A stretch of 64,000 nt of DNA from Lama glama. Lineage: Eukaryota. The DNA is taken from NCBI GenBank assembly GCA_028534125.1, contig CM052816.1, positions 47,432,001 to 47,496,000 on the forward strand, read 5' to 3'. The translations under genes were made by a program, and so were the position numbers. Shown here one piece after another: positions 1-27,529 of the stretch (the first letter of the stretch is position 1; each line of letters opens with the position of its first letter). The notes beneath the pieces are model-generated. The model had not been told where the DNA came from and searched no databases. It saw nothing but the letters and a program-made list of their open reading frames with translations.

Positions 1-664
1 TCTCATCAAAGCAGTGTTTGTTCATTTGTAGAATCATTTAGCATGTATTGGACTATGGGGACCTGAGATGGAACTTTTCCCATTTAAGAAAATAGCCACT
101 CTGTATTTAGATTCCTGTAGGGGACACTTTAGGAGAGTGATGTTGTTATATCATGCCTACAAATACTTCATCTGGGTTTGGAGTCTCTGATGTATCTGCT
201 CATTCAAGATAGCGGCACTTAGCAATTCAACAAGATGTAAGTTGGCTAATAAACAAAGCCAGTATTCTCTGGGGGTTTGAACAACACTTCCTGTGTTTGA
301 CTGTGGCTGCCCCGGAGTTGTTTTAAGCCCAGCACTGCTGGTGATGTTTCCCTTGGTGCACTGAACAGCTCATGCCATGTCAAAGGGCGTTGACCTTTTC
401 ACTCGTAGAACAAAAAGACTGGAAACAAATTATGCTCTGAGAACTGGTCAAAGGATAACAAAAAGAAAGGGAGGGGGGAGAAGAAAAGAAGAAAAAGTGT
501 TTCCCCCACACCCCAAAACAAGTGACGGACACAAATTCTAAGCTTTAGAGCATTATCTTAGGAGTATTAGCTCTTTAACCAACTTTTCTTTAAAGTGCAA
601 CATGAGAATTTGCTTCAATTTACTCTGAAACCACCCACCTCCACCCTCTTGGCTCTCTTTGCAG

Positions 665-805
665 AACACGATGAACCAACTACTGTTGTCTCCAAACCCC
701 CCGCCCCCCTATCCAGCTGACTCTTCCAGTTTACGAGCTGTCCACCACGGAGCTGAGGCTGGGAGAGAGGATGACTCATCTGCAAGTTTCGCTCGTGGTC
801 TCTGA
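665..805 (+). CDS. Candidate terminal coding exon of an unidentified gene entering from the left (phase 0): NTMNQLLLSPNPPPPYPADSSSLRAVHHGAEAGREDDSSASFARGL*
   Basis: Strong acceptor ctcttggctctctttgcag| ending at 664; open frame with PPPPY motif; TGA at 803-805; same frame stays open to TAA TAA at 908-913; polyA signal ~190 nt further on. An alternative frame (HDEPTTVVSKPPAPLSS*) cannot be excluded. Confidence 0.5.
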   Translation, partial: NTMNQLLLSPNPPPPYPADSSSLRAVHHGAEAGREDDSSASFARGL

Positions 806-1083
806 GAGGAGATTCAGTGTGAAGAACTGGAGGATGCAGCATATCCAAACACATGCCAGGGGACAGAACTTGAGTGGGAGGAAGAGGACGGGGCAAAAAT
901 AGAACCGTAATAAGCCAATTCTTACTGGAGGCCTGGCATAGCCTTTTCAGCTGTGTAGCTTCAGCAACACCTACAGTTCCCCGCCAAGAACGGCACGCCA
1001 TCCTGACACAGTGGAAATGAGGCATCCCTAGTGGTTTCCGCCGGAAGGAAAAAAGAAAAACAGAATACAAAAGCCGTACTTAA

Positions 1084-6498: not shown

Positions 6499-6646
6499 TT
6501 TTTTAATTGAAGTCTAGTCAGTTTACAATGTCATGTTAATTTATGGTGTACAGCATAGTGATTCAATTATACACACATATACACACACACATATACATAT
6601 ATATATATTCCTTTTCATATTCTTTTTCATTATAGACTATTACAAG
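6499..6646 (-). mobile_element. 5'-truncated cetartiodactyl/camelid-type L1 3' end with target-site duplication
   Basis: polyT then aattgaagtctagtcagtttacaatg...gtgtacagcatagtgattca; TSD atgattctt at 6490-6498 and 6647-6655. Confidence 0.88.
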
Positions 6647-7049
6647 ATGATTCTTGTTTTCAAGTTATATTCCCTTGGGCAAAGCTAAAATCATTTATCA
6701 TCTGTGAGTCCCACTTCTTTATAAAGTATGGAGACTAGACAGGAAGACAAAAGGTAATAAATGGATATTGACAAAGAAGTCCAGTGCCCACATCTGTTTG
6801 GTAAGCACGTCAAGCTGAAGCCCTTTTCTGGAGCTTCACAGACTCTGCCAACAGCATCTAGAAGGCTCAGAGAAACCCTTCCGTAAAGAACCTTGTATTT
6901 TTTGTTTAACCTAACATTTTAAACTTTGTTTAAACATGAAACACTTATGTTTTCTCAGAGCCCCTGCCATCATCTCTTAGAATTGTTTGAAATAAGCTTG
7001 ATTAGACATTTTCCATAGTCTTATTCTGGTCCATGAATGGCTCTTATAA

Positions 7050-11580: not shown

Positions 11581-12660
11581 ATTTTCATTTCAGTAAAAAG
11601 AAACTGGCTATCAAGTTGGAGACAAATTCTCAGATATCAAAGAATATGCTTTAAATGTGTATGTATGTGTTAAATCTTCATCAGGGTGAAAGACTATGTT
11701 AAACTATTAATTTAACTTTCACTGAAAAGATCTGAAATGGAGAAATTAAATTCTGCAGAAACATGGTAAGATGACACCAGATCTTTGAAAGAGCTGTAGG
11801 TAACATATCCACAACTAAAAGGGAGAGAGACAAAGGAATGGGGTCAGACAGCTCAGGGAGGTGCTGAAGGTCACGGAGCCCCATTGTTGGTTCACTGCAG
11901 ATTTGTAGCTTTTCAATCTGTCAGAGTCTGGCAGTCCAGCTATGCTGTACCGGCCAAGGGCCGTCTTTTGTTTAAGGAAGGAGTCATTCTTTGAAGACTG
12001 AGCTTGGTAAAACAGGAGAACAGAAAAACCAGAAGAGACTGTGTGAAACAGAAATCTTTTTCCTTCCAGACATCGAGGGTGGGTTCGAGGGAGTTTTGCA
12101 GAGTGTGTGTACCTTCTGACTCTGAAAGAAACAGTTGATTTCCATTGGTTGATTGTATGCCAATTTAGACGGTCTCTCTTTTTAGCATTAAAAATTCTTG
12201 TTTTTATAGTCTCACAAAATGGTGTAAATAAAATTGTGGAAATACTCTTAGACAGTTTGGAATCTTTTGAACTCGTGACTCATCCACAGCATCACCAGCC
12301 TGGGCTCCGCCTCAAGATGGTGACACGGTGTGTCAGTTCAGTCAAACCTATTTTCTGTGTGTCTGTTGCCCTCTAGGGACTCCAGCATGAAAAGAAACAT
12401 GCAGTGTGGCCATTTGGCAGGAAACAGTATGCCACTGGCTTTCCCGCACCACCATCACTCATTCAAATCTAATCTCAATTCTTATTCTTGTAAACTTGTA
12501 TTTAGCATTTCTGTGATCTGAGTAAAGTTAATTAAAAACATCAACTTGAATTATTCTTCCAAACTCAAGGTCTATGGCAAGTATTACACCTTGGTAATTC
12601 TGATTATTTTCAATCTGGTTCTGTGAGTTTGACAGAAATAGAAAAATGGAACTTAAAAAT

Positions 12661-12797
12661 TTTTTTATTGAAGTATAGTCAGTTCAGAATGTTTTGTCAA
12701 TTTCTGGTGTATAGCATAGTGATTCAGTTATATAAATATTCTTTTCATATTAAATTTTTTTTATTGACGTATAGCCAGTTCACAATGTTGTGTTAAC
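12661..12797 (-). mobile_element. Two tandem short L1 3'-end fragments, each with its own polyA (polyT on +)
   Basis: ttttttattgaagtatagtcagttcagaatg (12661) and ttttttattgacgtatagccagttcacaatg (~12757); same family as 6499-6646. Confidence 0.85.
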
Positions 12798-12864
12798 TTT
12801 TTTTTTTAAATGGAGTTACTGAGGACTGAACCCAGGGCCTCGTGCATGCTAAGTACGTGCTCTA
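12798..12864 (-). mobile_element. 5'-truncated Vic-1-like tRNA-derived SINE (Camelidae)
   Basis: Reverse complement tagagcacgtacttagcatgcacgaggccctgggttcagtcctcagtaactccattt(A)n, with a B-box-like ggttcagtcc. Confidence 0.8.
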
Positions 12865-13189
12865 AAAGATGGGAGAAATTTTAAGTCACTTGATCTACTT
12901 TGAAATTTTAGAATCCTAATTTTTGTAGTAGGCAGCAACCTACATCTGATAGTCTTGTATAAAGGTACTATAGTAATGCAGATTATTTCCTGAGAAATAA
13001 TTATGGGGTAGAAAAAGAACTGACTGTAGTAGTAGTAACATCGAAAAGATTTTTGCATTTAAAAATCATATTTTATTAGAGTTCAGATAAACTTGTATGA
13101 GTAAACTATTTAGTTGAAAGTCACACTCATGTTAAACCTATAGTTTCTTCACAGAAAGGGGAACAGCCCACACTAACTGGACATGTTTT

Positions 13190-26500: not shown

Positions 26501-27529
26501 GAGGCTTATGCGCTTTCACTTTTTAAATTAATTCTTTCCTTAATCATTCTTAGGGATTTTATTCCCAGCTATAACTTTGTGCTGATCAAACCTGCTTCTG
26601 ATTTCTCTTAATTACTAATGCCGTAAAGATGTTGCATCTTTTCCCAGCTCGCTTACAGCCGACTTTCAAATCAATTTAGGCATCTCAAAAGCATTTCTAA
26701 AATACCAGATGCTCTGTCAGCTGCACAGAACAATGCGCTAATAATTATATTTCTCTTTCTTACAGCAGATCAAAGTTAGAGATGGGGTGACATACACCTA
26801 AGATATTCAAACTCTGGCTTGAAGGTCAATTGGATCTGCCGACATATGTTGCTGATTTTGTAACATGAAAGCCAGCTAAAAACAACAGATCAGTGAAATG
26901 CATGTACACCGTAGTCTTAATTTCAGCCCTATCCAAATGTTTACAGAACAGTTTGAACAGATTTGCAGTTTCTTGTTATCAGCCTTATTCAAGTTTGGCA
27001 AACCTTTAATAACAAGTCTATCAACAACCTACCGGGAATTTGATTTTAGTCTTAGAGCGCTCGAATTTTTTTGTTGATTGAACAAGTTTTAATTGGATGC
27101 ACCAAGACCTTTCCTGATCAGTTGCCCACACTGCCTCATGGAAGCGTGGTATGCGTGCTCAGCTTGAAAAGGCAATGGTAGCTGGGCAAAAATAGCACTG
27201 TGAAAGCCGGGGAGAGGGCAAGCAGACAGGCAGCAAGATTGCCCTCCGCGGTGCTGTAATGTGGGTGCTTTAAGCCATACCGAAAAAGTAAACCCGACGA
27301 ATCACTACATGGCACTTGTGTTATGGTTCCATGGCTGAACTTAAAACATTGGAACCAGGATACAAGTGCCATTCCAAAGCCAGAGGACATCAGCTAAACC
27401 AGAACTGTGGGTCAGATTCACGTCTGTCAGCTACACAGCACGCTGAAAACGGCACTTCAGGAAAAGAGAGAAAAAAATAACAAGGCAGTCAGTTTGACCC
27501 ACCAGTGCCAGATTAATTTGACCGTATTA

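Follow-up and report, generated by a model that had tools for sequence, protein, structure and literature searches.

Analysis of the 64,000-nucleotide stretch studied here (the window) suggests that the region from position 665 to about 1135 may be a last coding exon that has decayed in the camelid lineage, probably through two lesions, a frameshift and a nonsense change. We prefer this reading tentatively, with somewhat less than even confidence. The odds given to it and to every other reading discussed below are a judgement, in which a strong phase signal, recognized after the fact, was weighed against the missing homologue. A non-coding origin of the region, with chance mimicry of a last exon, stands close behind.

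The region begins with an acceptor-like intron end on the plus strand (607–664; splicing use putative), which consists of a 56-base AG-free zone, a pyrimidine tract and a CAG ending at 664, with the boundary at 664/665 (...CTCTCTTTGCAG|AAC). A possible branch A was located by eye at 622. From 665, 46 open codons lead to CTC TGA GAG, where the internal TGA occupies 803–805 and is followed by GAG G; another frame, 675–902, stays open across this TGA. The next 34 codons (806–907) are again open, contain 13 Asp or Glu residues and are closed by TAA TAA at 908–913, the candidate original stop. A candidate polyadenylation signal (1084–1111; use putative) is located in an A-rich stretch further downstream and is formed by TGTA at 1084–1087 and two overlapping AATAAA at 1101 and 1106. 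The acceptor, the TGA, the 34 acidic codons, the double stop and the AATAAA had been placed at these coordinates in an initial annotation of this DNA, and re-reading of the letters confirmed all of them. Two features that define a terminal exon, a 3' splice site with a pyrimidine tract and a poly(A) signal 3' of the stop, are thus present at the level of sequence, on a strand that carries 69 AATAAA in the window. The strong acceptor, the TGTA and the twin AATAAA stand in the right order, which speaks for a decayed exon. The stop that would be used depends on the phase of the intron at 665: phase 0 leads to the TGA at 803, phase 1 (HDEPTTVVSK...) to a TGA at 718 and phase 2 to a TGA at 672. A second acceptor-like AG is present at 715–716 on the plus strand, after a C-run; entry there in phase 0 gives a 61-codon frame that crosses the TGA and reaches TAG at 900.

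All the statistics that follow were picked after the sequence had been seen, and the finding itself was drawn from very many windows. Little weight can be given to the open frame, to the double stop or to the CpG content, because each of them is matched in controls from the window. At least 34 open codons follow a stop in 979 of 7259 stop-to-stop intervals in the six frames (13.5%), 5.5% of the stops are double, and the 14 CpG in 665–1080 compare with 12–15 in eight other patches. These CpG-retaining patches (12–15 CpG per 416 bases, at 27051, 27751, 38451, 52751, 53301, 54401, 55901 and 62151) show no long coding signal and are candidate enhancers. Among 103 acceptor-like sites, defined by at least 14 pyrimidines in 17 positions, six are followed by at least 46 open codons, a stop and at least 34 further open codons (four with TGA as the first stop), the 665 site being one of the six and the thresholds having been set at its own values. 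When an AATAAA within 200 bases is added, one of the 103 sites is left, namely the 665 locus itself, and three of 397 are left at a looser cut-off. With respect to the AG-free zone, 14 of 4126 YAG sites are as good as the 664 acceptor, which is among them.

The acidic run at 806–907 is far above what shuffling and simulation produce. It is the sole stop-free 34-codon window with at least 13 Asp or Glu residues among 18,813, the maximum elsewhere in the window being 10. Dinucleotide shuffles reached 13 such residues in frame in none of 20,000 cases and in any frame once. Among 1690 real stop-to-stop segments of at least 25 codons, only 806–907 (38%) exceeds 30% Asp and Glu, whereas 11 of 373,482 Markov-5 simulated segments of this length reach 30% and none reaches 35%, in a model that understates real clumping at least two-fold (25% or more in 2 of 1689 other real segments against 184 of 373,482 simulated ones). 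A decayed GAG microsatellite was considered as the source of the run and was rejected, because the lag-3 autocorrelation (0.30) is no higher than at other lags.

These numbers have to be set against the possibility that the region was never coding and is instead enhancer- or promoter-like DNA or the last exon of a lncRNA, in which a purine-rich stretch reads as acidic by chance. We consider this a substantial possibility, ranking second. The acidic run is 72% purine, and the searches gave no protein relative for either of the two long plus-strand frames. No Pfam family reaches its curated cut-off in any of the 107 stop-free frames of at least 75 codons in the window. The CpG content resembles that of the eight patches, several of which coincide with codon-usage peaks elsewhere in the window, and the region contains sites at 699, 772 and 1041 that we take to be GC-box-like, AP-1-like and ETS-like, respectively. 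However, a non-coding origin does not readily account for a segment whose 38% Asp and Glu is reached by none of the simulated segments, nor for a codon phase that is the same before and after the TGA and does not extend past TAA TAA.

This phase is seen in the position of G within codons. G occupies codon position 1 in 11 of the 18 codons of 749–802, a Gly/Ala/Glu/Asp-rich stretch in phase with the acidic run, and in 18 of the 34 codons of 806–907 (53%), where A occupies position 2 in the same proportion (53%). The permutation P value is 0.012 for 749–802, with bounds chosen afterwards, and 0.038 for 665–802, the bounds of the initial annotation; 665–748 gives no phase signal in the 665 frame (P 0.53). 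Over 749–907, again with bounds chosen afterwards, the G-first excess is the highest among 125,766 windows (15.0 vs 14.5). Past TAA TAA the signal is lost, with a chi-square of 20.6 over 749–907 and 2.8 over 914–1072. Since the bias keeps one frame across the TGA, it fits what an ancestral stop at 908, as proposed in the initial annotation, would predict, and to this extent the proposal is favoured. The codon-usage contrast, calculated with a human codon-usage table, is 15 bits for 806–907 (top 0.4%) and nil for 665–802 (−1.8), and over 698–802 the frame 675–902 scores higher than the 665 frame (16.1 vs 11.3 bits). With this nil contrast, no match among proteins of 44–2000 residues and first codons that fit another phase (see below), the view that 665–802, read in this frame, ends a working and annotated protein is not supported.

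An in-frame, coding-like extension closed by a double stop is also what recoding at 803, by programmed readthrough or by selenocysteine insertion, would leave, and a study of mammalian UGA-CUAG readthrough (10.1101/2021.04.18.440353) describes systems that, like the locus, have a UGA with an extension in the same frame up to another stop. In that study UGA CUAG is given as the leaky consensus of mammals and UGA(A/G) as an efficient signal that is widespread. The locus differs from these systems in its UGA GAG G context and in the lack of a 3' structure, as 800–1000 folds no better than shuffles (z −0.5). Neither a SECIS among the 11 Rfam matches to E 1 in the window, which are sub-threshold and located mostly on microsatellites, nor the SECIS core pattern in 806–2400 was found. 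The earlier opinion that readthrough is the less likely explanation is therefore upheld on the grounds of context, fold and SECIS, and we regard such recoding as very improbable.

At the start of the exon the phase points elsewhere. In the first ten codons (665–696) all four G's open codons in the phase-1 frame (HDEPTTVVSK) and none of the four does so in the 665 frame, so the initial annotation's use of the 665 frame at the exon start does not hold up well. As these ten codons fit the neighbouring frame better, we take them, on the strength of four G's, as a hint of a one-base frameshift in the C6-G-C6 run at 697–709. Such a run is a natural slippage site. It encodes a PPPPY motif in the 665 frame, resembles a GC box and also provides the pyrimidine tract ahead of the second AG at 715–716. 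Allowing one frameshift places 37 of 68 G's at codon position 1, against 33 of 68 without it, and control windows score as high in 1 of 4172 cases with one free shift and in 12 of 4172 without a shift. If the hint is right, the present exon stops at the TGA that closes the phase-1 frame at 718–720, 17 whole codons past the acceptor, and the TGA at 803 would be a later lesion in sequence that was already untranslated.

The initial annotation had pictured a simpler history, in which an active gene is entered in phase 0 and a single recent nonsense change at 803 removes the acidic tail. The phase-0 frame is indeed open for 46 codons and then for 34 more, and the 33 of 68 G's in this phase correspond to a binomial P of 0.007. 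However, the first ten codons favour the other frame, and an active gene should probably have a camelid or other mammalian protein model that includes these residues, of which none of 44–2000 residues was found. We consider a single nonsense change in a working gene distinctly unlikely.

In the decay that we prefer, the original frame would have reached TAA TAA at 908 and its product would have had a disordered tail with a PPxY motif of the WW-domain-binding type and an acidic end. With less certainty, phase 1 may have been the entry phase of the exon, and slippage by one base within the C-run (697–709) may have brought the stop forward to 718. The codons past 718 would then have become 3' UTR, where the TGA at 803 would have arisen afterwards as a second, neutral lesion. 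The most probable origin of this TGA is a CGA codon changed by a CpG transition. If the gene is still transcribed, a tail-less protein would be made, because stops in the last exon escape NMD; otherwise the gene would be a unitary pseudogene. The claim in the initial annotation that a last-exon stop escapes NMD agrees with the 50-nt rule as given in PMC12776119. As in the NMD-escaping stops described there, a terminal-exon stop, whether at 718 or at 803, would provide no trigger for decay, the likeness here being one of sequence only. The locus also resembles the unitary pseudogenes and polymorphic nonsense alleles treated by Zhang et al. (2010, PMC2864566), in that an exon anatomy is kept and the lesions are a nonsense codon and, perhaps, a frameshift; among the lesions listed there is a CGA>TGA change in GPR33. 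In contrast, what defines those cases is that another species retains an intact orthologue, and none was found for this locus.

No search put a name on the gene. Word-based protein searches covered proteins of 44–2000 residues, a scope within which fast-diverging, low-complexity tails can be missed. For the 665 frame read through the TGA, none of 67 candidates of 143–2000 residues matched at E 10 or better, and no match was present among proteins of 44–142 residues. The only match to this frame among 1.84 billion representatives was an unrelated tandem-repeat protein, no match was found in PDB, and 0 of 595 metagenome pattern matches were confirmed. The Atlas gave no usable match for 665–802 (recognition 1292), a 22-base acceptor pattern had no match in metagenome contigs, and none of 14 candidates for the frame 675–899 reached E 10. 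The best Pfam match to the 665 frame was a weak one over the proline motif to TMEM171 (PF15471; E 0.15–0.31). The family shares a PPPPY-type motif followed by small polar residues, but at E 0.15 and 11.5 bits against a cut-off of 27 this is a motif-level likeness and not orthology. The PPPY motif is also the only feature shared with a retroviral gag late domain; a gag origin was rejected, as Pfam gave no gag match. The one-frameshift reading, compared with Pfam and PDB, gave a weak Pfam match to Shadoo (E 0.16) and nothing in PDB. None of five small ORFs was present in an exact look-up of the protein collection, six peptide motifs had no occurrence in the full-text literature, and no gene was named there for the locus.

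The missing homologue is the main argument against the coding readings, above all against an intact annotated gene. It also weighs against the decayed exon that we prefer, as annotated orthologues would normally be expected for a mammalian gene broken only recently, and none was found. A related possibility is that the region is the last exon of a mammalian gene absent from the gene catalogues of the searched collection, whose product, a membrane or adaptor protein, would carry a PPxY motif and an acidic tail and be intact in other mammals and shortened in camelids, with the other exons before the window; we regard this as unlikely. As no long frame reaches the Pfam cut-off, the window resembles a gene desert or the inside of a long intron, and any upstream exons would lie before it. 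We take the window to correspond roughly to human 5q14.3–q15, by interpolation between the human coordinates of DMXL1 and CCDC152, with an error of several Mb. We know of no gene in that interval with such an ending, which does not amount to a test. For positions 400–1400, 24 sequencing runs were listed, of which six, from one organism and two studies, contain 0.80–0.88 of the sampled words; the region is therefore present in other samples, which does not show the codon at 803. Another 14 of the 24 runs, RNA or guessed to be RNA, contain 0.04–0.19 of the words and count as no evidence.

It is also conceivable that the region is an ordinary working last exon with its normal stop at 672, 718 or 803, or at 900 by way of the AG at 716, and that the remainder is old 3' UTR, possibly reached through frame-shifting alternative splicing. 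Two acceptor-like sites offer these four stops, and a tail of 2 or 17 residues would escape protein searches. Splicing-accessible coding 3' UTRs, as presented by Preussner et al. (2020, PMC7392665), likewise have one last exon with several readable frames, and the proline-rich alternative frames of this kind are described there as common in mammals. However, they need a frame-shifting alternative penultimate exon, which here would lie outside the window. An ordinary exon leaves the phase signal at 749–907 unexplained and the frame 675–899 without a relative, and we judge it improbable.

A processed pseudogene or retrocopy was rejected, as the searches gave no parent protein and the target-site duplication is weak. 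The possible old duplication (14 of 17 positions match between 423–439 and 1109–1125) flanks the locus behind the A-rich stretch, and an upstream match as good is found at 7 of 149 AATAAA sites.

Several other features were observed in the window. A 54-codon, ATG-started basic ORF at 377–541 (plus strand) is in frame with the 665 exon, has a negative codon-usage score and is absent from the exact look-up; it is probably a product of chance. On the minus strand, a 154-codon stop-free frame spans 615–1079, with a strong pyrimidine tract and TAG upstream near 1030–1075 and a donor-like GAG|GTGGGT near 638. It has no Pfam, PDB or exact match and could be an antisense non-coding exon. Six PETase-pathway hydrolase sequences matched the minus frame 618–1079 at E 0.25–0.27, these matches being due to chance. 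A repeat-poor segment at 11815–12376 contains two open frames without Pfam match, one of 154 codons on the minus strand and one of 109 codons on the plus strand; an acceptor-like site is seen near 12069, and near 12277 there is an AP-1-like motif. The T-rich pieces at 6499–6660 and 12655–12870 may be similar to the 3' end of a camelid LINE-1 or SINE in reverse orientation.

If the region is non-coding, it would be a useful example of how closely chance mimics a last exon. If it belongs to a gene that is absent from all annotations, it would point to an unlisted mammalian protein gene with a motif of the ubiquitin-ligase-binding type, of which camelids would have a natural tail-less variant. 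If it is the relic that we prefer, it would add one more gene loss or C-terminal truncation, an event of an ordinary kind, to those of the camelids.
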